IMG/VR virus record: IMGVR_UViG_3300009783_000001
DNA length: 54,074 nucleotides
Reading direction: 5' to 3' (one strand)
Source: a virus
Shown here: positions 6,915 through 35,615 of the stretch, piece by piece
Layout: the number at the start of each line of letters is the position of its first letter
Position numbering within the stretch: position 1 is the stretch's first letter
Made by a program: the position numbers and the translations under genes
The notes under the pieces: model-generated
Told to the model about the DNA's origin: nothing
Database searches by the model: none
What the model saw: only the letters and a program-made list of their open reading frames with translations

Positions 6915-8455
6915 GCTCTGATGACAACATCTACACGCCCTACGCGAACTTGGTGCCCTTCTTCGTCGAAGAGCCCATGTGGGCGCCAGAGACCGAGCGG
7001 GAAAGGGTCCAATCGTACGGGGTGTACGACGAGCTGTACTGGAACTACCGCAAGGCACTGAAGCTGATGTTGGCCGACGACCGGGATCCGGTTTATCTCC
7101 CGACCCCTCGCACGATCGTCGATAGCACGTCTCATTTCCTCCTCAAGGGCCTCCGTATCGCTCCCAAATCGGGTGAGGGCGAGTCACCCTTCAAGCAGGC
7201 GCTCGACGCGTTCTTCAAGCGTGAGAAGTTCATGTCGAAGTTCCACACCAACAAGCTGGCGGGTGTGCGCCGAGGTGATGCCTACTTCCACCTCACGGCT
7301 GACCCCAACAAGCCCGTTGGTTCCCGGCTCTCCATCAACGGCCTCGATCCTGCGTCGGTCTTCCCGATCTGGGACGACGATGACATCGACAAGCTGCTGG
7401 GCATGGACATCGTCACGCAGTGGGAGGGCGAGGACGGCAAGCCCCGGATCAAGCGGCTCCGGTACATGTACGAGTTCGGCCCGAACGGTCGTATGGTCTG
7501 GATGAGCGAGGGGCTCTACGAGGTCGAGGGCTGGTGGAAGGGCAAGGCCGCCAAGGTCGTTCAGATCTTCATGACCGACACCAAGCTCGACCCTCGCATC
7601 GACACGATCCCCGTCTTCCACTTCAAGAACCTGGATGACGTCGAGAACCCCTTCGGGTCGTCAGAACTGCGAGGCTTCGAGCAGCTCATCCAGAGCATCA
7701 ACCAGAGCGTGACCGACGAAGATGTCGCGTTGGCCCTGGAAGGTCTCGGTGTCTACGCAACCGATGCGCAGCCGCCCGTGAATGAAGCGGGTGAAGAGGA
7801 GCCCTGGATCATCGGCCCGGGTCGGGTGCTCGAGACGCCGGGCGGCACCTTCTTCAAGCGGGTCGAAGGTGTGGGATCGGTCAAGCCCATGCAGGACCAC
7901 ATCCAGATGCTGGCTGATGGGCTCTACGAGGCATCTGCGACATTCCGCCCCTCACAGGTGGATGTGCTGACCGCCGAGTCGGGTGTGGCCATGGCGATCA
8001 AGTTCATGCCGACCCTCGCCAAGATCGAGACCCGTGACCAGGATGGCCTGGACAACCTCGAGCAGCTCTTCTACAACTGGCGCAAATGGCACGATGTCCA
8101 CGAGGGCCAGCTCTTCACGGATGAGCTCGAGATCTCCATCGGTGACAAGCTGCCGGAGTCTCGCAAGGAGAAGCTCAACGAGCTCAACAACATGAAGGAC
8201 CGAGACGTGATCTCGGCGAAGTACTTCAGGGCCGAGATGGCCAAGTTGGGCTACATCTTCCCGAACGACGAGGAGATGGAAGACCAGATCTTCAAGGAGA
8301 AGGAACGCGCCCTGAAGCTGCAGCAGATGTTGGGCAACAACAACAACGCAGCTTTGGCTGGCGGCGACCCCAAGAAGGACACGATCCCGGGCAACGACAA
8401 CGCGAGCAACAACGCGAAGAAGCCCAACGAGTCGGGTGGCACAGAGGCCACTTGA
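6911..8455 (+). CDS. portal protein
   Basis: 514 aa, immediately after terL with start/stop overlap. Size, position and acidic/polar C-terminus are typical of portals. Confidence 0.8.
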   Translation: MSSDDNIYTPYANLVPFFVEEPMWAPETERERVQSYGVYDELYWNYRKALKLMLADDRDPVYLPTPRTIVDSTSHFLLKGLRIAPKSGEGESPFKQALDAFFKREKFMSKFHTNKLAGVRRGDAYFHLTADPNKPVGSRLSINGLDPASVFPIWDDDDIDKLLGMDIVTQWEGEDGKPRIKRLRYMYEFGPNGRMVWMSEGLYEVEGWWKGKAAKVVQIFMTDTKLDPRIDTIPVFHFKNLDDVENPFGSSELRGFEQLIQSINQSVTDEDVALALEGLGVYATDAQPPVNEAGEEEPWIIGPGRVLETPGGTFFKRVEGVGSVKPMQDHIQMLADGLYEASATFRPSQVDVLTAESGVAMAIKFMPTLAKIETRDQDGLDNLEQLFYNWRKWHDVHEGQLFTDELEISIGDKLPESRKEKLNELNNMKDRDVISAKYFRAEMAKLGYIFPNDEEMEDQIFKEKERALKLQQMLGNNNNAALAGGDPKKDTIPGNDNASNNAKKPNESGGTEAT

Positions 8456-25774: not shown

Positions 25775-26007
25775 TGGCCCAGTACGGCACGGGACGAAAG
25801 CCCCACACATGCTGGAGGTGCAAGCTTCTCTTCGAGCAAGAGCTCGAGGATGAGAGAGAAGGTCGAACCCTGAAGCGCAACCGCAAGTTGCCGCTGTTCA
25901 ACGAGTTCTACAAGCTCTTTCGGGAGGGCGGGACCAGCAAGGTCAAGGACTGGATCGACGAGCGATACGCCGAACAACACAAAGGACACAAGAAGTCATG
26001 GGTATGA
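25774..26007 (+). CDS. hypothetical protein (77 aa)
   Basis: ATG 25774 (TGATG coupling). HTCWRC motif. Confidence 0.5.
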   Translation: MAQYGTGRKPHTCWRCKLLFEQELEDEREGRTLKRNRKLPLFNEFYKLFREGGTSKVKDWIDERYAEQHKGHKKSWV

Positions 26008-27119
26008 GACCACTTACCGAACTGCAACTGCTGGGCGCAGAAGCCGGCTTCGACCCCACGGGCATGACTCGGGTTGAGATCATGGACCACCTGCGGGGTG
26101 TGGCCGACCGGTTCCAGATCGACCCGATGAAGGCGACGGACCTGAAGAAGCAGATCCACTGGGGCGAGGAACACCCCTTCCGGGACATCGCTCACCACCT
26201 GACGCCTGAGGTTGCCCTCGAGCCGAAGTACGACGGCTGCCGGATGAGGTTCTTCATCGGCGAGGATGGGTCTCGCATGAACACGGGTCGTCGATCGACG
26301 GTGACCTACGGCTACCTCGACCGCAGCGCCAACTTCCCCCACCTCGCTGCCCTCAAGTCGAAGAAGCATCACGGCACGGTGCTCGACGGGGAGCTCATGT
26401 CACCCACCGCCGTGATCCCCCTCAAGAAGGGCGGGCAGTCGAAGAGCAAGCTGAACGCGGCAGTCGCCATCGTCACGGTCAAGGATCAGGCATGGGCGAT
26501 CAAGGTCCAGGATGAGGTCGGGCCCTTCGAGTTCTACGCCTTCGACGTGCTGGTGTGGAGGGGTGAGGACGTCCGACATCTCAGCTACATCGAACGACGT
26601 CGACTGCTGCGCCGGGTCATGAAGTCGATGGAGAAGCCGTTCTTCAGGCCCACACCGATCTTGAAGGCGAGCCCCGCTGCGATCCTTTGGTGCCTGCGTG
26701 AGGGGTACGAGGGGGCGATGGTCAAGACCAAGCACGGCCCCTACGAGTCGGGGAAGCGATCGAAGCACTGGCACAAGATCAAGACCATGAGCACACTCGA
26801 TGGGGTCATCACCGGGTGGGACCCGGGCGAGGGCCGAAACGAGGGCAAGGTCGGCGGGGTGAAGATCTCGCTAAACCGAGGCAAAGATGACGAAGCATGG
26901 GACTTTGTCGAAGTTGGGCAGTTCGGGGCGATGGATGACGCGCTCCGACAGGCCATGACCGATGACTGGGATAGCTTCGAGCACCAGGTCGTCGAGGTTA
27001 TGGCTCAGGGCAAGACCAAGAACGGGCGCTTGCGACACCCGCAGTTCGTGCGATTCCGCCCCGACAAGTACCCGGTCGACTGCGGCATGGACCAGCTCGA
27101 TCACTTCCCGGAGGTCTGA
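25998..27119 (+). CDS. ATP-dependent DNA ligase
   Basis: Motif I EPKYDGCR (KxDGxR), FYAFDVL, EGAMVK, WHKIK, and OB-domain RHPQFVRFRPDK. Confidence 0.9.
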   Translation: MGMRPLTELQLLGAEAGFDPTGMTRVEIMDHLRGVADRFQIDPMKATDLKKQIHWGEEHPFRDIAHHLTPEVALEPKYDGCRMRFFIGEDGSRMNTGRRSTVTYGYLDRSANFPHLAALKSKKHHGTVLDGELMSPTAVIPLKKGGQSKSKLNAAVAIVTVKDQAWAIKVQDEVGPFEFYAFDVLVWRGEDVRHLSYIERRRLLRRVMKSMEKPFFRPTPILKASPAAILWCLREGYEGAMVKTKHGPYESGKRSKHWHKIKTMSTLDGVITGWDPGEGRNEGKVGGVKISLNRGKDDEAWDFVEVGQFGAMDDALRQAMTDDWDSFEHQVVEVMAQGKTKNGRLRHPQFVRFRPDKYPVDCGMDQLDHFPEV

Positions 27120-28681
27120 TGGGCACCACCTACAAATGGAAGCGTCGCCCCTATCGGCACCAGGTCGAAGCGGTCAAGCAGGGCGTCAGAGCGCTCCAGA
27201 AGACTGGGGGGTTCGCATTGCTGATGGCGCCCCGCACAGGGAAAACCAAGACCGCAAGCGACATCTCAGCGATCATGCACCTCAAGGGACTGGTCAACCG
27301 GGTGCTCATCATCTGCCCCATCAGCGCCATCGACGTTTGGGTCAAGGAGCTCGAGGCGAACGTTCCTTACCCCATGCGGATCGTGATCTGGGATAGGCAG
27401 GGTCGAAAGACCACTGAGCTGCCCAAGTGGGGAACCGATTACCTCGACATCGTGATCGTCAACTACGACGCATTCTCTACCCCAGGGGTGAAGCGAGGGG
27501 CTCGGTCAACCGGGAAGTACGCGATCCTTGCCGCTATCCGCAGGTGGCAGCCTCAACTGGCGATCCTCGATGAGTCCCATCGCATCAAGTCGCCGAGTGC
27601 GGCCAAGACGAGGACCATCACGCAGCTCGCATGGCAGGAGCGACGCCCGAGGGGGAAGCCGATCTACCTGGAGAACTTGATCCCCTACCGACTGATCCTC
27701 ACCGGTACCGTGCTGACGAAGAAGAAGCGCATCTTCGACATCTACAGCCAGTGGAAGTTCCTCAACCCGTACTCGAAGCTCGTACGAGGCATGACCCTGG
27801 ACAGCTTCAAGAAGCTCTACTCGGTGTGGACCGAGCGCAACGGGTACCCGCAGTGGCTCAGGAACAAGAGCAATGCCGAGGACATCCTCAGGAGGCGGAT
27901 GCACAAGGACGCGTTCGCCATCACCCGAGACGAGTGCTACGACCTGCCGGGTCGACTCGATCCCGTCATCATCAAGGTGCCGCTGGTCAAGTCAGCGAAG
28001 TACTACGACGAGATGGCTGAGGAGATGATTATCCAGCTGAAGGGCGGGGAGTTCAGCTGGGCAAAGATCCCGCTGGTGCAGCGGTTGAGGCTGGCTCAGA
28101 TCACGGGTGGCATCCTCAAGATCGAGCCGAAAGACCCGGAAGACCCGGACGACAAGGGGCGCCTGGTCAGGGTGGGCGATGAGAAGCTCAAGATCCTGGC
28201 CGACATCCTCATCGACCTCCACGAGCAGGGCGAGAAGGTCGTCATCGGCGCACGGTTCCGAGGCGACATCAGCTCGATCCGCAGGCTCTGCGTGAAGATG
28301 AAGATCCCCGTATTCGAAGTGCACGGCGGCATCAGCGCAGCCCGCAAAGGGGGGAAGCCGTCAGAGCGTGACGAAATGATCCAGGGATTTACGGCAGCTG
28401 AGGGCTGCGCAGTATTCATCGGGCAGCCTGCCGCAGCTTCTGAGGCGATCGACCTGCGAACTGCTGGAACCATGATCTGGTATTCGTTGGTCCCCAGCTG
28501 GGTGCAGTTTACCCAGTTCGAGGATCGGATCGCCCTGAATGGCAAGGCCCTCCGTTACATCTACCTCCTTGCTGAGGGCACGGTCGACGAGCTGCAGTAC
28601 GCTGACCTCATGGAGGATGGCGACATGGCCAAGAGGATCACCGATTCGCCAGACCGGCTTCGCCGGAACTTCAAGGCATAA
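27119..28681 (+). CDS. SNF2-family helicase/ATPase
   Basis: Motif I LLMAPRTGKTKT and motif II ILDESHRIKS. C-terminal helicase domain (FIGQPAAASEAIDL). Confidence 0.85.
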   Translation: MGTTYKWKRRPYRHQVEAVKQGVRALQKTGGFALLMAPRTGKTKTASDISAIMHLKGLVNRVLIICPISAIDVWVKELEANVPYPMRIVIWDRQGRKTTELPKWGTDYLDIVIVNYDAFSTPGVKRGARSTGKYAILAAIRRWQPQLAILDESHRIKSPSAAKTRTITQLAWQERRPRGKPIYLENLIPYRLILTGTVLTKKKRIFDIYSQWKFLNPYSKLVRGMTLDSFKKLYSVWTERNGYPQWLRNKSNAEDILRRRMHKDAFAITRDECYDLPGRLDPVIIKVPLVKSAKYYDEMAEEMIIQLKGGEFSWAKIPLVQRLRLAQITGGILKIEPKDPEDPDDKGRLVRVGDEKLKILADILIDLHEQGEKVVIGARFRGDISSIRRLCVKMKIPVFEVHGGISAARKGGKPSERDEMIQGFTAAEGCAVFIGQPAAASEAIDLRTAGTMIWYSLVPSWVQFTQFEDRIALNGKALRYIYLLAEGTVDELQYADLMEDGDMAKRITDSPDRLRRNFKA

Positions 28682-28697
28682 TTCGAGAACGAGACTG

Positions 28698-28726
28698 TTG
28701 ATTGCGGGAACGCGGTTTGATATGAT
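28698..28726 (+). promoter_or_regulatory. sigma70-like promoter with conserved CAACGAAAGG leader
   Basis: TTGATT (28698-28703), 17 nt, TATGAT (28721-28726), then GTCAACGAAAGGAAATCCC-ATG. Confidence 0.55.
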
Positions 28727-28753
28727 GACTCGTAGTCAACGAAAGGAAATCCC

Positions 28754-29311
28754 ATGCTCATCGTAGAAGGGCCCGACGGGGCAGGAAAGACGACCCTCGT
28801 CTCCTCGCTCTGCACCCATCTTGAACTGGAGGTGCGACCTCGGTCATCGACCTCCGATCACGGTCCCGTGGGGGACATCGGTGATTGGATCGACAGGGAT
28901 TTCACCACCAACACCCACGTGGGGATCTATGACCGCCACCCGCTGATCTCCGAGACCATCTACGGCCCCCTCATTCGGGCCAGCCAGAGCGACCTGCTCG
29001 GCATGGGCCCGGTCGAGGACCTCTTCGAGATGTTGTACTCGACGTCGCCCCTGGTCATCATCTACTGCCTGCCCCCCGTCGCAGCAGTCCGGGTGAACGT
29101 GGGTCAGACCCACGAGGGCACCACCGACCATCTTCGAGGGGTGCTGAAGTTCACCGATCAGCTCTACGACCTGTACTCCTACAGGTACCTCATGGATGCA
29201 GCACGCGGTGTGGCCATCAAGTGGGACTACACGGATCTCGACGATGGCCGCAACTTCGAGAAGCTCAAGACCCAGGTCAAGGGCTGCGCCAAGAAGGGCA
29301 GGGTCTGGTGA
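28754..29311 (+). CDS. thymidylate-kinase-like dNMP kinase
   Basis: P-loop EGPDGAGKTT and YDRHPLISETIYG (DR motif region), as in dTMP kinases. Confidence 0.7.
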   Translation: MLIVEGPDGAGKTTLVSSLCTHLELEVRPRSSTSDHGPVGDIGDWIDRDFTTNTHVGIYDRHPLISETIYGPLIRASQSDLLGMGPVEDLFEMLYSTSPLVIIYCLPPVAAVRVNVGQTHEGTTDHLRGVLKFTDQLYDLYSYRYLMDAARGVAIKWDYTDLDDGRNFEKLKTQVKGCAKKGRVW

Positions 29312-29817
29312 TGCAGGATGACCTCTTCAAGTTGATGCTCGCCAAGCAACTCGAGTTGCAAACCCAGAAGATGAAGGATGGGGACCCCCGCAACCTCCGA
29401 GGGGAGGCCCGGGCGGACTTCATCCGATGGAACGCCTACGCCCTCGAAGACGAGATCCACGAGGCCACCGCCGAGGTCAAGTGGAAGCCCTGGGCCAAAG
29501 ATCCAGGTCAGCTGCCTGACATCATGGCCTACAACAAAGAGCTGGTCGACGCCTTCCACTTCTTCATGAACCTGCTCTTGGTCGGCAACCCGGGCTTGCC
29601 TCCCGAAGATCTGGCTGACCTCTTCTTCGATCTTTACATGGAGAAAAACGCCGTCAACGCCAAGCGCCAGGACGATGGCTACACCGGCGACAAGTGCCCG
29701 GTTTGCAAACGCGAGGTCGAAGCAGCAACCAAGCTGGGCGACGACCCCGCCACCCACACGACCTACTACAAGTGCCCCTGCGGCAACCGCTACCACATCC
29801 AGAAGGATCCAACGTGA
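29311..29817 (+). CDS. all-alpha NTP pyrophosphohydrolase (dimeric dUTPase/MazG-like, putative) with C-terminal zinc ribbon
   Basis: ALEDEIHEATAEVKWKPW ... ELVDAFHFFMNL helix pattern. C-terminus CPVC...CPCG. Confidence 0.5.
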   Translation: MQDDLFKLMLAKQLELQTQKMKDGDPRNLRGEARADFIRWNAYALEDEIHEATAEVKWKPWAKDPGQLPDIMAYNKELVDAFHFFMNLLLVGNPGLPPEDLADLFFDLYMEKNAVNAKRQDDGYTGDKCPVCKREVEAATKLGDDPATHTTYYKCPCGNRYHIQKDPT

Positions 29818-30875
29818 CCGCCACCACCCTCAAGCCCTCTGTCTTCGAGGCACCGACCCTGACCGAGCTGCACGCCAAGCTCTGTCGAGACATCGTCATG
29901 GCGCCAGCAGATGACCTCGACGTCATCAGCTCCGTCGATGTCCAGATCCACAACGCGATCTGTTACACGCCATCCATGAAGTGGGACTTCGATCTCAAGG
30001 ACATGTGGCTGACCAAGAGCCGATGGTCCATGATGGTCAAGCAGTACATCGACCCCGACGACCTCAAGGTGTGGCTCGAGCAGGTCACGGGAACCATCGG
30101 GGTCAAGGGCCGAGGGATCGCCACCCTCCGCACGAAGATCGTCAAGCCCCGAGGGGGCGAAGCGACGGGCCATACCAACAAGCAGACCCGGCGCTGGGGC
30201 TCCTGCATGCTGGCGATCACCTACAAGGCGAAGCCCCGCCCGCAGATCACGCTCTACTCCCGGACCAGCTACCTCGGCTACCTCGGCGGGCTTGACATCA
30301 GCGTTGCCTGGATGTGCGCTCGGTACGTCGCCAAGGAACTCGGCATCAACGTCGAGGACATCGCGTTCTGCTGGATGAACGAATCGCTGCAGTACCACAA
30401 CTTCAAGTCCATGGCCTACTTGCTCAACCACCCGAACAAGAGCGAGCGGAAGGCCTACCGGGCCATGCTGATGTGGCCGGAGAAGAAGATCAAGAAGAAG
30501 CGCCCTGACCTCATCAAGGTCCTTGCCAAGTCGCCTGCCTTGAACCTGACGCGGAAGTGGCTGCAGAAGGTCATCCAGGAAGACGCAGACGGCAAAACCT
30601 TGGGCGACATGACCTACAACACCTACCGCCGCATCCGCCGGCGCTTCCACACCGAGGTGATGGGGTACGAATACGCCCAGAAGTTCGAGGGGTGGTCGGT
30701 CTACAAGACCGGCGATCAGAAGGGGGAGAACAAGGAGTTCTTCAAGGCCTACCAGCCCCTGCCCTCGGTCAACATCCACGACTGCGACTTCTCGGCCATC
30801 GGCCTTTCCATCAAGGGGACATGGGGAGTGCCCTTCGACGAGTCCGCCGGCGATCCCGATGAGGATGAGGACTGA
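29814..30875 (+). CDS. divergent thymidylate-synthase-fold (ThyA-like) protein
   Basis: RRWGSCMLAITYK..PQITLYSRTSYLGYLGGLDISVAWMCARYVA aligns by eye to the ThyA core PCH..[24 protein letters not shown]. Catalytic-Cys position retained; RSxD degenerate. Confidence 0.5.
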   Translation: MTATTLKPSVFEAPTLTELHAKLCRDIVMAPADDLDVISSVDVQIHNAICYTPSMKWDFDLKDMWLTKSRWSMMVKQYIDPDDLKVWLEQVTGTIGVKGRGIATLRTKIVKPRGGEATGHTNKQTRRWGSCMLAITYKAKPRPQITLYSRTSYLGYLGGLDISVAWMCARYVAKELGINVEDIAFCWMNESLQYHNFKSMAYLLNHPNKSERKAYRAMLMWPEKKIKKKRPDLIKVLAKSPALNLTRKWLQKVIQEDADGKTLGDMTYNTYRRIRRRFHTEVMGYEYAQKFEGWSVYKTGDQKGENKEFFKAYQPLPSVNIHDCDFSAIGLSIKGTWGVPFDESAGDPDEDED

Positions 30876-31051
30876 TGCCCCCAAACCAATGCGAGTTCAA
30901 GGCCCCGTTTCGGGGCAAGATGGTGCGATGCACCCAGGTCGCTCGATGGGTAGGTCGACTGCACGGTTCCACCGGCGACCTTGCCCTAGTCTGCGACGGC
31001 CACCAACACTTCCTCTGGGAACCGAAGGAGATCAAGCATGAGGGTTCTTGA
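30875..31051 (+). CDS. small Cys/His-rich protein (58 aa)
   Basis: ATG 30875 overlaps the upstream stop (TGATG). MPPNQCEFKAPFRGKMVRCTQ...LVCDGHQHF. Below the ORF-track size cutoff. Confidence 0.35.
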   Translation: MPPNQCEFKAPFRGKMVRCTQVARWVGRLHGSTGDLALVCDGHQHFLWEPKEIKHEGS

Positions 31052-31862
31052 CGACTACGACGAGTTCGATGACATGGTGGAGGACTTGAGGCTCATGTTC
31101 CTCAATTCTGCCAAGGTCGTCGACGTGGGCGAATGGCACTCGCAGCCGATCGACAACCCCCTGCTCATCACCCGAGAGCTTCAGGACGCGATCCTGGTGA
31201 TCCCAGTGCCAACCAATCAGCCGATGCTCGAGCGCCGGGTGCGCCCCAACATGCCCTGGGCTGAGGATCATTTCCAGGAAAGGGTCTCGGGTCGACCGCT
31301 GAACCCGCCGCCCAGCAACGAGTGGTGGCCCTTTGCCCAACAGGGCAACGCGAGTCACAAGGAGGGGGATGGGATCTTCTCGCACACCTACCCGGAGCGC
31401 ATGTGGCCCAAGTATGGGGGTGAGGTGGGTCGACTCTTCGCTCCTGATCCAGAAGAGTGGCCCCGGTACACCCGCAACAACACGAACCTCAACCACAACG
31501 CGGGGCTTCGCTATCGGCTGGGGGATCTCGATGACCTGGTCGAGCAGCTCAAGGACAACCCTGAGACACGCCAGGCATACTTGCCGATCTGGTTCCCGGA
31601 AGACACCGGGGCTGTTGACGGTCAGCGAGTGCCCTGCACGCTCGGGTACCACTTCCTGATCCGGGATGGGAAGATCAACTGCAGCTACTACATCCGCTCA
31701 TGTGACTTCATCCGGCACTTCAGGGATGACGTCTACATGGCGGCTCGGTTGATGCAGTGGATCGCAGACAAGTTGCCGGGGGTCAAGCCCGGCGACCTCA
31801 ACATGTACATCGCCTCGTTTCACGTCTTCGAGGGTGATGTATCCAAGCTGAAGGCGATGTGA
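31038..31862 (+). CDS. ThyA-family pyrimidine C5-transferase (dCMP hydroxymethylase/methylase-like)
   Basis: ETRQAYLPIWFPED...VPCTLGYHFLIRDGKINCSYYIRSCDFIRHFRDDVYMAARL...ASFHVFEGD is the canonical TS core, with Asp at the Asn177-equivalent position. Confidence 0.65.
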   Translation: MRVLDDYDEFDDMVEDLRLMFLNSAKVVDVGEWHSQPIDNPLLITRELQDAILVIPVPTNQPMLERRVRPNMPWAEDHFQERVSGRPLNPPPSNEWWPFAQQGNASHKEGDGIFSHTYPERMWPKYGGEVGRLFAPDPEEWPRYTRNNTNLNHNAGLRYRLGDLDDLVEQLKDNPETRQAYLPIWFPEDTGAVDGQRVPCTLGYHFLIRDGKINCSYYIRSCDFIRHFRDDVYMAARLMQWIADKLPGVKPGDLNMYIASFHVFEGDVSKLKAM

Positions 31863-32332
31863 TGAGGATCTCACGAGACCAGATGTTGCTCAAGATGGCG
31901 CAGGTGGCAGCGATGCGAGGCACTTGCTCACGAGCACGCGTAGGTGTGGTAATTGCACGCGAGGGGCGGGTGTTGTCAACGGGCTACAACGGGGCTCCTG
32001 CCGGCATGGACCATTGCAACCACACCTGCACGTGCCCTCCTCGTCGAACGGTCATCCACCAGGCTGACTGCCCTGAGGTCATGCCTTGCCGGCTCTCGGT
32101 TCATGGGGAGGCCAACGCCATCGCTTACGCAGCTCGGTACGGGGTTCAGGTCGACGGCGCCACCCTCGCCACTACCCTGAGCCCATGCATCCCGTGCGCC
32201 CAGCTCATCATCAACGCCGGAATCACGAGGGTGCTTTGGGCTTCTGAGTACCGAGACACGAGCGGGATCGATCTTCTTTGTTCTGCCGGGCTGTTGACGC
32301 AATGGATCCCTGCTGATAGCATGGACTCATGA
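31859..32332 (+). CDS. dCMP deaminase
   Basis: Zinc motifs HGEANA and PCIPC. GYNG motif. Confidence 0.85.
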   Translation: MMRISRDQMLLKMAQVAAMRGTCSRARVGVVIAREGRVLSTGYNGAPAGMDHCNHTCTCPPRRTVIHQADCPEVMPCRLSVHGEANAIAYAARYGVQVDGATLATTLSPCIPCAQLIINAGITRVLWASEYRDTSGIDLLCSAGLLTQWIPADSMDS

Positions 32333-34860
32333 CGATTCGGAACCCTGATTGCACTGCCTGCAAGCTCCATCGTGGTGTCGAGGAGGTTTGCGAGATAGGG
32401 TTCGGGCCGAAGAAGGCTGACATCATGGTGGTGGGCAAGATGCCCAACAGCTCCACCTATCGAGCCTCTCTTGAAGCGGATCTGCTCGAGGTGGGGATCG
32501 ACCCAGCAACCGTCTACTTCACCTCGGCGCTGAAGTGCAGGAACTTCGACCTGAACGCCAGCAACGTCGACATCAAGGCATGCCGGCCCTACCTCGACGC
32601 GGAAATCGAGAAGGTGCAGCCCAAGTGGATCCTCGCAACGGGCAATGAGGGACTCTTTGCACTCACAGGCCACTCAGGCATCATGAAGTATCGCAGCCGG
32701 GTGATCGAGCGAGGCGATATCTCGATCATCCCTACGATCTCCCCAGCAGCTGCTCTGCGCAACCCAGGCCAGCGAGGGTCATGGCTGACCGACCTGAGGT
32801 TCTTCGCATCGCAGGTGTTCGAGAAATCGGCCAAGATCGCCAAACCCGAGATGGTCTACATCACGACCAAGAAGCGATTCCTCTGGCTCAAGAAGATCCT
32901 CGCTAAGACCGAGTTGATCTCCTACGACATCGAGACCTATTCCACACCGATGGGTGACGAGTTCGCCGACAACGCTGCGATCGTGAGTCTCTCGGGCACT
33001 TGCGTTCTGCGCAACGGCAAGGTAGTCGTCTGGTGCATCCCCCTTTTCCACCCGCAATCGCCCTTCCGCAGCAACTGGCGGCAAGCGTTGAGGCAGCTAG
33101 CTCCGCTGTTGGAAGCGATCCCAAAGCAGATTGCTCACAACGGCAAGTACGACGCTCGCTGGATGAGGCAATTCGGGGTACGCATGGTTGTGACCTTCGA
33201 CACCATGCTCGCTTGCCACCTCCTCGACGAGAATCGAGCCAAGGGCCTCAAGCCTCAAGCCACCTCCCGCTTCGGGGTGGCCCCCTGGGGCGTTGACACA
33301 AGGAACCTGCTCGACATGCCGATCGAGGAGGTGATGGAGTACAACTGCCTCGACACCTTCTACACCTATCACGTCTACCTCGAGACGAAGGAAGAGCTCA
33401 AGGCTCAGCCTCGGTTGCTGCGCATCTTCATCCTCATCACGACCAAGGCGAACAACATCCTGATTGACGTCGAGCGACATGGGGTGTGGACCGATCGTGA
33501 GCGACTTCAGACGCAAACCGCCCGGACGCTTGCGCTTCGTGACGAGGTCGACAAGCAGTTGATGGCTTGGGTTCCTGAGGTGGGCTGGGAACCTTCGCCT
33601 AAGAAAGCCAAGAAGGGCAAGACTGCATGGCCCACACAGGGCAAGGGCATCAAACCAGTCGAGGTCAACTTCAACCCCTCCAACTTCGCTCGCTGGTGGA
33701 TCTTTGATTACCTCGGGCTACCGATCCTCGAGCGAGGCAAAGACAAGCCCGATGGGGGCCCGGGTGACCCCTCCATGAAGGAGGCGGTGCTCATGGAGCT
33801 CAAGGAGAGTCACGAGGTAGTAGCCTTGCTGCTCGAGCGGGCTCGACTACAGAAGATGACCACCTTCTTCAACGCCTACAACAACATCATCGACGAGGCT
33901 GACCGCATCCGCACTACGTTCAAGCTCGCCGGCACCGTGACCGGGCGACTGAGCAGTGGCAAGGCTGATGCCGACAAGATCCCTGGTGCTCGGGACATTC
34001 GAGGGGTGAACCTGCAACAGGTACCTCGTGACCCCGCCGTACGAGGGCTCTTCGGGGCACCTCCTCCGAAGTACCTCTTCATCGAAGCTGACTTCTCCCA
34101 GGTCGAGCTCAGGGTTGTCGCCTTCATCTCACGTGACCCTCGCATGATGTACCTCTACCAAACGGGGCAGGACATTCACCGAGCCACCGCTGCGGAAACC
34201 CTCGGGGTGCCCATCGACCAGGTGAGCAAGGACGATCGCAAGAAAGCCAAGGCGGTGAACTTCGGCTTCGTCTACGGCATGGGGTGGAAGAAGTTCATCC
34301 AGACTGCCTTCGAGAAGTACGAGCTCCACTTCACCGAGGCTGAGGCCATGGCTATCCGGAAGGCCTTCTTCAGGCAATTCCCCGGTCTACTGCCCTGGCA
34401 CGCTCGTCAACGACGCCTGGTGAACGAGCACATGAGGGTTGTCTCGCCCCTCGGTAGGGTACGCCACCTGCCCGACATCCTCTCAGGCGAGCAGGGAGTG
34501 AGGGGTGAAGCCGAGCGACAGGCCATCAACTCGCCCGTGCAGTCGTTCGCTTCAGACATGACCCAGCTCAGCATGATCTTGATCCATGAGCACTTCGAGA
34601 AGCTTGGTATCAAGGCACACATCCTGGGCTCGGTGCATGATGCTCTCCTCTTCGAGGTTCACCACAAGCATGTTGCTCGAGCCATGCCGATCATCAAGTC
34701 CACCATGGAGAACCTCCCGCTCAAGCGGATGTTCGGCATCACCCTCGATGTTCCCATCGTCGCTGACCTCAAGCTTGGCACCCACTGGGGTGATGCAACT
34801 GAGCTCGAGGAACACGAAGTCTACAACTACAACCCCAAGAAAGCACTGGTCAACGCATGA
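32329..34860 (+). CDS. polA: family A DNA polymerase with 3'-5' exonuclease and N-terminal UDG-family-4-like domain
   Basis: Exo I SYDIETYS. Motif A DFSQVELRV, motif B KKAKAVNFGFVYGMG, motif C SVHDALLFE. N-terminal ~170 aa: CTACKLH...VGKMPN...ALKC...KAC...ISPAAALRNP. Confidence 0.9.
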   Translation: MTIRNPDCTACKLHRGVEEVCEIGFGPKKADIMVVGKMPNSSTYRASLEADLLEVGIDPATVYFTSALKCRNFDLNASNVDIKACRPYLDAEIEKVQPKWILATGNEGLFALTGHSGIMKYRSRVIERGDISIIPTISPAAALRNPGQRGSWLTDLRFFASQVFEKSAKIAKPEMVYITTKKRFLWLKKILAKTELISYDIETYSTPMGDEFADNAAIVSLSGTCVLRNGKVVVWCIPLFHPQSPFRSNWRQALRQLAPLLEAIPKQIAHNGKYDARWMRQFGVRMVVTFDTMLACHLLDENRAKGLKPQATSRFGVAPWGVDTRNLLDMPIEEVMEYNCLDTFYTYHVYLETKEELKAQPRLLRIFILITTKANNILIDVERHGVWTDRERLQTQTARTLALRDEVDKQLMAWVPEVGWEPSPKKAKKGKTAWPTQGKGIKPVEVNFNPSNFARWWIFDYLGLPILERGKDKPDGGPGDPSMKEAVLMELKESHEVVALLLERARLQKMTTFFNAYNNIIDEADRIRTTFKLAGTVTGRLSSGKADADKIPGARDIRGVNLQQVPRDPAVRGLFGAPPPKYLFIEADFSQVELRVVAFISRDPRMMYLYQTGQDIHRATAAETLGVPIDQVSKDDRKKAKAVNFGFVYGMGWKKFIQTAFEKYELHFTEAEAMAIRKAFFRQFPGLLPWHARQRRLVNEHMRVVSPLGRVRHLPDILSGEQGVRGEAERQAINSPVQSFASDMTQLSMILIHEHFEKLGIKAHILGSVHDALLFEVHHKHVARAMPIIKSTMENLPLKRMFGITLDVPIVADLKLGTHWGDATELEEHEVYNYNPKKALVNA

Positions 34861-35615
34861 CTGACACCCGACACCTCCTCAAGCCGGAAGAACTCGAGGC
34901 CCTCGAGAAGCCAGCCGAGTTCTTCCCCGACCTGGTCTGCGAGTACCGAGATCACATGGGCGACGATGACGCGGTCATCGAAGCCATGCTGGTGAGCACG
35001 CAGGGCGCCAGCGCCAAGGACCTCAAGGCCGACAAGGGCCGCATCGACTTCCTCATGAAGAACCGACACGGCACGCCGTTCGAGCACACCGCCATCAAGT
35101 TCTACGTGCGGGCGCCGATCATGGTCTTCCGGGAGTGGCACCGCCACCGCATCGGCTTCAGCTACAACGAGGTCTCGGCTCGGTACAAAGTGATGGAGCC
35201 CCACTTCTACATCCCCGGCCCCGATCGCCCCCTGGTGCAGCACGGCAAGCACAGCAACACCTGGTTCGAGCCGGCGACGCCCGAGCAGTACGACATCTTC
35301 GTCAACGACCAGCAGGAGACCTTCGAGTTCCAGTGGTACAAGTACGCCAAGCAGCTCAAGGACGGCATCGCCAAGGAGGTCGCTCGAGACGTACTCGGTG
35401 TGGGCCTCTACACGCAGATGTTCGTCACCCTCAACCTCCGCTCGGCCCTGAGCTTCCTCTCGCTGCGGCAGAAGTTCACCGCCGAGGAGGCGATGTTCCC
35501 CTCGTCGCCGCAGTGGGAGATCAACCAGTGCGCCAACCAGATGGAAGCCACCATCGCCGAGCTCTTCCCCCTGACCCACCAGTGCTACGTGGATCGCCTC
35601 CGCGTCGCCCCCTGA
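34857..35615 (+). CDS. thyX: flavin-dependent thymidylate synthase ThyX
   Basis: ThyX signature WHRHRIGFSYNEVSARY (RHRxxSxxxxSxR). Confidence 0.9.
   Translation: MTDTRHLLKPEELEALEKPAEFFPDLVCEYRDHMGDDDAVIEAMLVSTQGASAKDLKADKGRIDFLMKNRHGTPFEHTAIKFYVRAPIMVFREWHRHRIGFSYNEVSARYKVMEPHFYIPGPDRPLVQHGKHSNTWFEPATPEQYDIFVNDQQETFEFQWYKYAKQLKDGIAKEVARDVLGVGLYTQMFVTLNLRSALSFLSLRQKFTAEEAMFPSSPQWEINQCANQMEATIAELFPLTHQCYVDRLRVAP

Follow-up and report, generated by a model that had tools for sequence, protein, structure and literature searches.

A predicted cytosine-modification module built around two adjacent proteins of the thymidylate synthase fold in actinophages and related phages

The IMG/VR virus record IMGVR_UViG_3300009783_000001 comprises 54,074 nucleotides of phage genome (this whole stretch is referred to as the window), with a guanine-plus-cytosine content of about 60%. 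Its closest cultured relatives are actinophages, e.g., Curtobacterium phage Shrew and the Microbacterium phages Triscuit and Huwbert. Positions 27119-35615 of the plus strand form one tightly packed block of replication and nucleotide-metabolism genes with overlapping stops and starts (Table 1). Between the genes for a nucleoside triphosphate (NTP) pyrophosphatase and a deoxycytidine monophosphate (dCMP) deaminase lie the two genes of interest, termed P1 and P2. An initial annotation, made from the sequence alone, had described both as paralogs of the fold of thymidylate synthase (ThyA), with Asp in place of Asn177 of the Escherichia coli enzyme, and had proposed cytosine-directed chemistry.

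To our knowledge, nearly all known pre-replicative modifications of pyrimidines in phage DNA start with an enzyme of the thymidylate synthase superfamily. The chemistry of the superfamily has recently been widened by flavin-dependent 5-hydroxy-dCMP synthases. Asp at the Asn177 position is an established determinant of dCMP use (PMC13326640, PMC8670742). The N177D and N229D mutants turn into dCMP methylases (PMC13326640; PDB titles 1njc, 6l18), and Asp is found at this position in the T4 dCMP hydroxymethylase (dCH, D179), in MilA and in the 5-hydroxy-dCMP synthases (PMC13326640; PMC8670742). It has also been shown that the residue at position 143 correlates with a methyl or hydroxymethyl product (Leu in methylases, Asp/Glu in hydroxymethylases) and that D169N is a signature of 5-hydroxy-dCMP synthases (PMC13326640). 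In metaviromes, Asp177 homologs were found on modified-cytosine contigs, alongside NTP-pyrophosphatase and dCMP deaminase domains (PMC8670742).

Identity and active-site residues of P2 and P1

P2 matches Pfam PF00303 with 48.1 bits (cut-off 24.3) over residues 144-272. Alignment of the P2 family (A2, 47 sequences) with E. coli ThyA by hhalign (probability 94.2) paired C200 with C146, R220 with R166, D223 with D169, D231 with N177 and H262 with His207; the register of the HMMER alignments of P2 with MilA and AfhB was identical. The peptide YIRSCDFIRHFRDDVYMAARL, on which the initial annotation had relied, was located in 31038-31862, and its placement of Asp at the Asn177 position was borne out by both methods. 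D231 was Asp in 61/61 and 81/81 complete copies, in two sets from isolates and IMG/VR contigs that have contigs in common. In ThyA numbering, the 81 copies carry R126, Q127, R143, C146, T/S147, R166, D169 (one Glu), D177, H207 and F209 (78/81). P2 shares the fold, Cys146, Arg166-Ser-Cys-Asp169 and the 11-residue spacing from this Arg to position 177 with the E. coli and L. casei ThyA proteins; it differs from them in Arg143, Thr147, Gln127 and Phe209 and in the absence of residues 222-264. The P2-ThyA alignment stops at residue 221 of 264, and the C-terminal 43-residue closing segment is gone; in ThyA, the C-terminus is required for the closed, hydride-transfer state. P2 also misses all NCBIfam ThyA equivalog cut-offs (60.6 bits versus 174.6 for TIGR03283; 35 bits versus 108-327 for the ThyA models). 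On account of Asp177, of these low scores and of the absent C-terminus, P2 was not assigned to canonical ThyA. A by-eye pairing of E76 and Y118 of P2 with Glu58 and Tyr94 was withdrawn, as an extended, low-confidence hhalign alignment did not reproduce it and the N-terminal half is too diverged.

Sequence and predicted structure alike place P2 nearest, among solved proteins, to the dCMP hydroxylase AfhB and the CMP hydroxymethylase MilA. AfhB (5-hydroxy-dCMP synthases of phage HY126, RB69 gp48 and DLP3 gp80; PDB 9iqu, 9iqc) was the best PDB sequence match of P2 and the best structural match of both P1 and P2; like P2, it has Asp at 177 and a compact fold without a C-terminal tail. MilA (Streptomyces CMP 5-hydroxymethylase; PDB 5b6d/5jnh) was second best by sequence (E 3.9e-10) and also has Asp at 177. 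The predicted structure of P2 matched the PDB with E 2e-12 (Foldseek). T4 gp42 resembles P2 in its fold, Cys nucleophile, Asp at the Asn177 position (D179) and short C-terminus; this enzyme was not among the 60 PDB sequence matches listed for P2. At the Leu143 position, MilA has Asp, whereas the acidic residue of the T4/MilA type is not present in P2 (Arg197 in 81/81 copies). The AfhB-type 5-hydroxy-dCMP synthase was rejected as an identity for P1 or P2, since neither has D169N: P2 has Asp223, and P1 has Tyr153, with Glu in a proteobacterial branch described below and Asn in 2/102 relatives. P2 is best read as a new member of a known enzyme kind, a putative dCMP C5-modifying enzyme within a T4-like pathway.

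Searches with the P1 sequence gave no match in Pfam, NCBIfam or PDB (phmmer/hmmsearch for the PDB), and a Pfam scan of 102 P1 relatives gave none either; the likeness of P1 to ThyA is undetectable by sequence. P1 is labeled 'hypothetical protein' in 85 phage records and 'unknown function' in PHROG 13667. The AlphaFold2 model of P1 (41 sequences; predicted local distance difference test, pLDDT, 90.5; predicted template modeling score, pTM, 0.87) includes a C-terminal helical extension of about 150 aa. Foldseek comparison of this model with the PDB gave 105 matches at E <= 0.001, led by 9iqu (E 1.3e-6). Among the best 50 of these, 49 were thymidylate synthase, dCMP/CMP hydroxymethylase or AfhB entries (probability 1.00) and one was a designed protein. 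In BFVD, uncharacterized phage proteins came on top, followed by viral thymidylate synthases and gp42-type hydroxymethylases. The modeling indicates that P1 adopts the thymidylate synthase fold, and the paralogy claimed initially holds at the fold level, with no link at the sequence level. One BFVD protein that matches the P1 model (A0A8S5MQL3, 408 aa, E 1.4e-6) is annotated with a CMP/dCMP deaminase domain, which suggests a fusion of this fold with a deaminase.

Equivalent residues of P1 were sought with profiles restricted to the core, made up of helix J and the strands that carry the Cys, the Arg and the His. The hhalign alignments paired C131/C146, R150/R166, Y153/D169, D161/N177 and W187/W201 in one register for three targets, with P-values of 0.023 (P2 family), 0.016 (E. 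coli ThyA) and 0.015 (AfhB). In 60 column shuffles the real scores were reached 6, 1, and 1 times, respectively, and all three together never. A core alignment with a MilA fragment had the wrong register and was non-significant. The distance from Arg to Asp is 11 residues in P1, P2 and the proteobacterial P1-like branch, as it is from Arg to Asn177 in ThyA. The AlphaFold models of P1 and P2 also show the same order of elements: the Cys lies 1 residue before a strand, the Arg occupies the fourth-last position of the next one, and the Asp falls within the initial turns of the long helix that comes after. The concordant weak alignments, the order of secondary structure and the conservation make the equivalences of C131, R150 and D161 well supported, if not proven. 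They coincide with those drawn initially by eye from the peptides YSRTSYLGYLGGLDISVAWMC and RRWGSCM, both located in 29814-30875: P1 keeps the catalytic-Cys position and probably has Asp in place of Asn177. In the profile-profile comparisons, the noted register was recovered from the core-restricted alignments, and the full-length comparison of P1 with P2 was negative.

A profile search of the whole library returned 218 P1 relatives, and conservation was scored in 102 of them, at a mean identity of 19%. Y78, G129, C131 and R150 were invariant; R70, S149, W187 and R273 were near-invariant, the last of these in a conserved basic C-terminal helix. Position 161 was always acidic and never Asn. Position 153 was variable in the actinophage branch (Tyr 75, Phe 8, others; Asn 2), and the loss of the Asp of the RSxD motif, reported initially for P1, applies to this branch only; the proteobacterial branch keeps an acidic Glu. 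In pseudoenzymes, catalytic residues usually drift. A regulatory partner or an enzyme with new chemistry had initially been considered for P1; the fixed Cys and Arg and the unfailingly acidic residue 161 in relatives this diverged speak for an enzyme or a ligand binder rather than a degenerate partner.

Table 1. Genes of the module and putative active-site positions of P1 and P2 in the window (residue equivalences in ThyA numbering).
Feature	Position	Strand	Basis or remarks
SNF2-type helicase, upstream anchor of the conserved module	27119..28681	+	Homolog upstream in nearly all related loci; SNF2 Pfam families recorded for the gene of a relative
P-loop deoxynucleoside monophosphate (dNMP) kinase-like protein	28754..29311	+	PHROG 761 'thymidylate kinase' E 6.8e-14; P-loop Pfam matches weak; position in module conserved
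All-alpha NTP pyrophosphatase (dimeric-dUTPase/MazG-like) with C-terminal zinc ribbon	29311..29817	+	Pfam dUTPase_2 E 2.6e-9; PHROG dUTPase/NTP-PPase
P1, highly diverged protein of predicted thymidylate synthase fold, 353 aa, PHROG 13667	29814..30875	+	AlphaFold2 model and Foldseek
P1 Cys131, putative catalytic Cys146 position	30204..30206	+	Invariant in 102 relatives and 62 loci; codon checked
P1 Arg150, putative phosphate-binding Arg166 position	30261..30263	+	Invariant in 102 relatives and loci
P1 Tyr153, putative folate-contacting Asp169 position	30270..30272	+	Tyr in 75/102 relatives; Glu in proteobacterial branch
P1 Asp161, putative Asn177 equivalent	30294..30296	+	Asp in 97/102 and Glu in 5/102 relatives; Asp in 62/62 loci
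Micro-open reading frame (micro-ORF), 58 aa, Cys/His	30875..31051	+	Start overlaps P1 stop, end overlaps P2 start
P2, thymidylate synthase family, Asp177 (cytosine) type	31038..31862	+	Pfam PF00303; hhalign to ThyA
P2 Arg197, Leu143 position	31626..31628	+	hhalign; Arg in 81/81 copies
P2 Cys200, Cys146	31635..31637	+	hhalign; conserved copies
P2 Arg220-Ser-Cys-Asp223, ThyA Arg166-Ser-Cys-Asp169	31695..31706	+	hhalign; conserved copies
P2 Asp231, Asn177 equivalent	31728..31730	+	hhalign and HMMER
dCMP deaminase	31859..32332	+	Pfam PF00383 E 2.8e-21; conserved 3' of P2
DNA polymerase I (PolA) with N-terminal uracil-DNA glycosylase (UDG)-superfamily domain	32329..34860	+	Pfam PF00476, PF01612, PF03167; conserved end of module
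ThyX, flavin-dependent thymidylate synthase	34857..35615	+	Pfam PF02511 E 2.5e-38

Distribution of the pair and its gene neighborhood

Loci with P1 were gathered with alignment A1 and others with P2 as the seed; the two contig sets overlap, so that their counts cannot be taken as independent. Phages Muddy (gp50-44), GTE2, Lauer, Zuko and Shrew share with 56 IMG/VR contigs the gene order helicase, kinase, pyrophosphatase, P1, P2, deaminase, PolA. P2 follows P1 in 61/61 loci that reach far enough. Of 78 P2-seeded loci with enough upstream sequence, 71 have a hidden Markov model match to P1, 2 have a gene that is P1-like by inspection, and 5 have other neighbors. This asymmetric coupling (61/61 versus 73/78) points to a dependence of P1 on P2 rather than of P2 on P1. 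The neighbors in the five P1-less loci include an asparagine-synthase-like amidotransferase, a non-specific endonuclease and Sak4/DUF669 genes; these loci may represent other modification or host-DNA-degradation contexts. In locus L140 (2547-3926), an asparagine-synthase/glutamine-amidotransferase gene lies upstream of the P2-type gene, and in L138 (2646-3227, 3540-3911) a non-specific DNA/RNA endonuclease and an MGS-like domain protein are encoded there.

The stop of P1 and the start of P2 overlap by 4 nt in at least 8 loci, which suggests co-translation of the two proteins. The junction ranges from this overlap to 1.1 kb, with unrelated small ORFs inside. It is an insertion hotspot in loci L008-L063; L023 has an HNH-endonuclease-like ORF there (7032-7346), and L034 and L035 (around 7000-8100) each have Cys-rich ORFs, about 76-78 aa long. 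The Cys/His micro-ORF that had been noted between the two genes does exist at 30875-31051; it recurs only in the closest relative, L064 (5071-5235), with 46% identity and with its Cys, Cys and Cys-x2-His retained. It was absent from the next relative (L065) and from the other loci, and no real similarity to Shrew gp75 was detected. A conserved third component was ruled out on these grounds, as the junction elsewhere is empty or holds unrelated small ORFs, and the micro-ORF does not belong to the conserved pair. It probably represents a genuine accessory gene for a zinc-binding protein, specific to this lineage. Between the window and L064 the micro-ORF diverges much faster (46% identity) than the flanking P1 (93%).

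A more diverged P1-like family occupies the same slot in Serratia phages Serbin, Opt-155 and Tlacuache, Yersinia phage P744, Pseudomonas phages PMBT14, Almagne and Lebethron, and further proteobacterial phages. Its homology to P1 was established with hhalign (probability 96.5, E 9e-10), and its invariants are G-x-C, Y-R-S-T-E and an Asp 11 residues past the Arg, with the acidic Glu at the Asp169 position. The best alignment of this branch with P2 was non-significant and again paired R/R, E/D169 and D/D177. Two records, of a Yersinia phage and of a Manatee Spring metagenomic phage, label the P1-like gene 'pyrimidine hmase synthase'; the fold had thus already been noticed by an annotation pipeline.

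Stop and start codons overlap at nearly all gene boundaries of 25998-35615 (29311, 29814-29817, 30875, 31859-31862, 32329-32332, 34857-34860), indicating one translationally coupled operon. The pyrophosphatase has a CxxC...CxC tail that is zinc-ribbon-like (the Zn_ribbon_CSL match is weak), and its similarity in the PDB is solely to dimeric dUTPases (E 0.14). The UDG domain of PolA (PF03167, E 1.4e-14) is fused to exonuclease and polymerase domains; the same fusion is present in the called genes of L065, a close relative. ThyX follows PolA directly only in this window, L020 and L038, among the 64 loci examined, and most related loci have no ThyX within 6 kb.

Predicted pathway and alternative explanations

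In the reading that we prefer, and to which we give an even chance, P1 and P2 are the center of a conserved module of the T4 type that modifies dCMP before replication, with P1 adding a second step. The NTP pyrophosphatase would bring dCTP (and dUTP) back to the monophosphate. P2, as a folate-type homolog, would attack C6 of dCMP with Cys200 while Asp231 reads the N3/N4 face of cytosine, and would put a one-carbon group on C5. The product would most likely be 5-hydroxymethyl-dCMP; this assignment draws on the absent ThyA C-terminal lid and the polar Arg at the Leu143 position, and the missing lid together with the retained Asp169 suggests folate-dependent hydroxymethylation. P1, which retains the nucleophilic Cys, the Arg that clamps the phosphate and the Asp that reads the base, would bind a cytosine nucleotide and carry out a second, non-canonical step on the P2 product, or else would be an obligate subunit working with P2. 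It probably does not use folate canonically, since this lineage has no folate-contacting Asp169. The kinase would phosphorylate the modified dCMP and pass it on to the phage PolA for incorporation into DNA, and the deaminase and ThyX would provide deoxythymidine monophosphate (dTMP).

The neighboring genes follow the same logic as the T4 dCTPase (gp56), dNMP kinase (gp1), deaminase (cd) and own polymerase. Because its closest solved relatives, AfhB and MilA, act on cytosine, P2 is likewise read as a cytosine-acting enzyme. The cytosine-directed chemistry proposed initially is a sound deduction for P2, given Asp177 and the T4-like neighborhood; for P1 it is plausible.

Several observations weigh against this pathway. 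The register of P1 was obtained without a three-dimensional superposition, and hhalign comparisons of each full-length P1 profile (A1, A3 and A4) with the P2 family (A2) were negative. Arg143 of P2 fits neither the hydroxymethylase pattern (Asp/Glu) nor the methylase pattern (Leu), which makes the product assignment weak; T4 gp42 differs from P2 in the same respect. The search of the window for a glycosyltransferase or other DNA-level modifier found none, a glucosyltransferase included, whereas AfhB-type systems have an arabinosyl-/glycosyl-transferase cluster; T4, for its part, has no second protein of the P1 type. The pyrophosphatase is weakly dUTPase-like and the kinase is annotated as a thymidylate kinase, so the module could equally serve the supply of dTTP. 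For none of the phages with the pair was an experimental report of modified DNA found, though isolates such as Muddy and GTE2 were sequenced long ago.

More tentatively, and in our view rather less probably, P1 would add its Cys to C6 of a cytosine nucleotide and use a non-canonical co-substrate, and a large and widespread group of phages would replace cytosine, fully or partly, by an undescribed base. In one possible reaction, 5-hydroxymethyl-dCMP made by P2 would be re-activated to an exocyclic methylene and captured by a new nucleophile. On this reading, the group would take in Muddy and many phages of Gordonia, Streptomyces and Microbacterium, along with siphophages of Serratia, Yersinia and Pseudomonas. 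AfhB offers a precedent for a cofactor switch once Asp169 is lost; to propose the use of flavin by P1 would be pure speculation. MilA, which like P1 is longer than ThyA, acts on a ribonucleotide in antibiotic biosynthesis and not in a phage replication module.

P1 could instead be a non-catalytic subunit of the same fold, in a heterodimer with P2 or as a scaffold of a complex for deoxynucleoside triphosphate synthesis; its role would be regulatory nucleotide binding or completion of the active site of P2, which alone would perform the chemistry. Thymidylate synthases are obligate dimers with shared active sites, and P2, with Gln at the Arg127 position in 81/81 copies, may need residues from a partner. 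The missing Asp169 equivalent of P1 in this lineage, the close adjacency and frequent translational coupling of the genes, and the 5/78 loci in which P2 stands without P1, so that it can function alone, point the same way. We nevertheless consider such a partner unlikely. Cys131 and Arg150 have remained invariant and position 161 acidic in the 102 relatives and in the proteobacterial branch as well, up to 1.1 kb may be inserted between the genes, which means that tight coupling is not required, and no P1-P2 fusion occurs among the 150 family representatives listed.

It is just as improbable that the module only raises the supply of thymidylate and that the virion DNA is canonical, with P2 (possibly with P1) making dTMP from deoxyuridine monophosphate, or via 5-methyl-dCMP and the deaminase. 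The annotation of the neighbors in isolate genomes as thymidylate kinase, dUTPase and dCMP deaminase is consistent with such a role, as are the match of the pyrophosphatase to dUTPase_2 and the failure to find reports of unusual DNA in these phages. Where ThyX is missing nearby, as in most related loci, P2 could be the sole thymidylate synthase. In the window, however, ThyX supplies dTMP without any need of P1 or P2, and a dTMP role for P2 would be redundant with ThyX in the same operon. The invariant Asp177 also argues against dTMP synthesis, as all characterized natural Asp177 enzymes act on cytosine nucleotides (PMC13326640, PMC8670742). The distance of P2 from the ThyA equivalog cut-offs and the loss of its closing C-terminus tell against it too, and the conservation of P1 would be left unexplained.

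Finally, that the likeness of P1 to thymidylate synthase is a modeling or search artifact, with a coincidental Cys/Arg/Asp match, is highly improbable: no sequence or profile method linked full-length P1 to the family, the Foldseek template modeling (TM) scores are modest (0.3-0.6) with a high root-mean-square deviation, and the core P-values lie near 0.02, with 6/60 shuffles matching the score for one of three targets, but the model is confident, BFVD concurs with 49 of the best 50 PDB matches, four independent targets gave one register, the aligned residues are exactly the invariant ones, and the P1 gene always adjoins a true thymidylate synthase homolog.

Novelty and significance

No description of the P1 family or of a cassette with two proteins of the thymidylate synthase fold was found in the literature, and nothing was found on DNA modification in the Muddy, Gordonia, Streptomyces, Serratia, Yersinia or Pseudomonas phages that carry the pair. 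P1 and its pairing with P2 appear to be a novel variation on a known type, and all function remains prediction. This pair would reclassify, in no fewer than 85 sequenced actinophages, the genes now called 'thymidylate synthase' and 'hypothetical protein'. A second fold member that is invisible to sequence searches, standing beside an Asp177 homolog in most such loci examined, is a concrete candidate for new chemistry.

The predicted two-protein route to a modified cytosine would be common to many phages, among them Muddy, a Mycobacterium phage that has been used in patients. The prediction can be tested directly with available isolates. If it is true, a modified cytosine in Muddy would bear on restriction and CRISPR evasion, on host range and on engineering by Cas counter-selection, as well as on sequencing artifacts and innate immune sensing.

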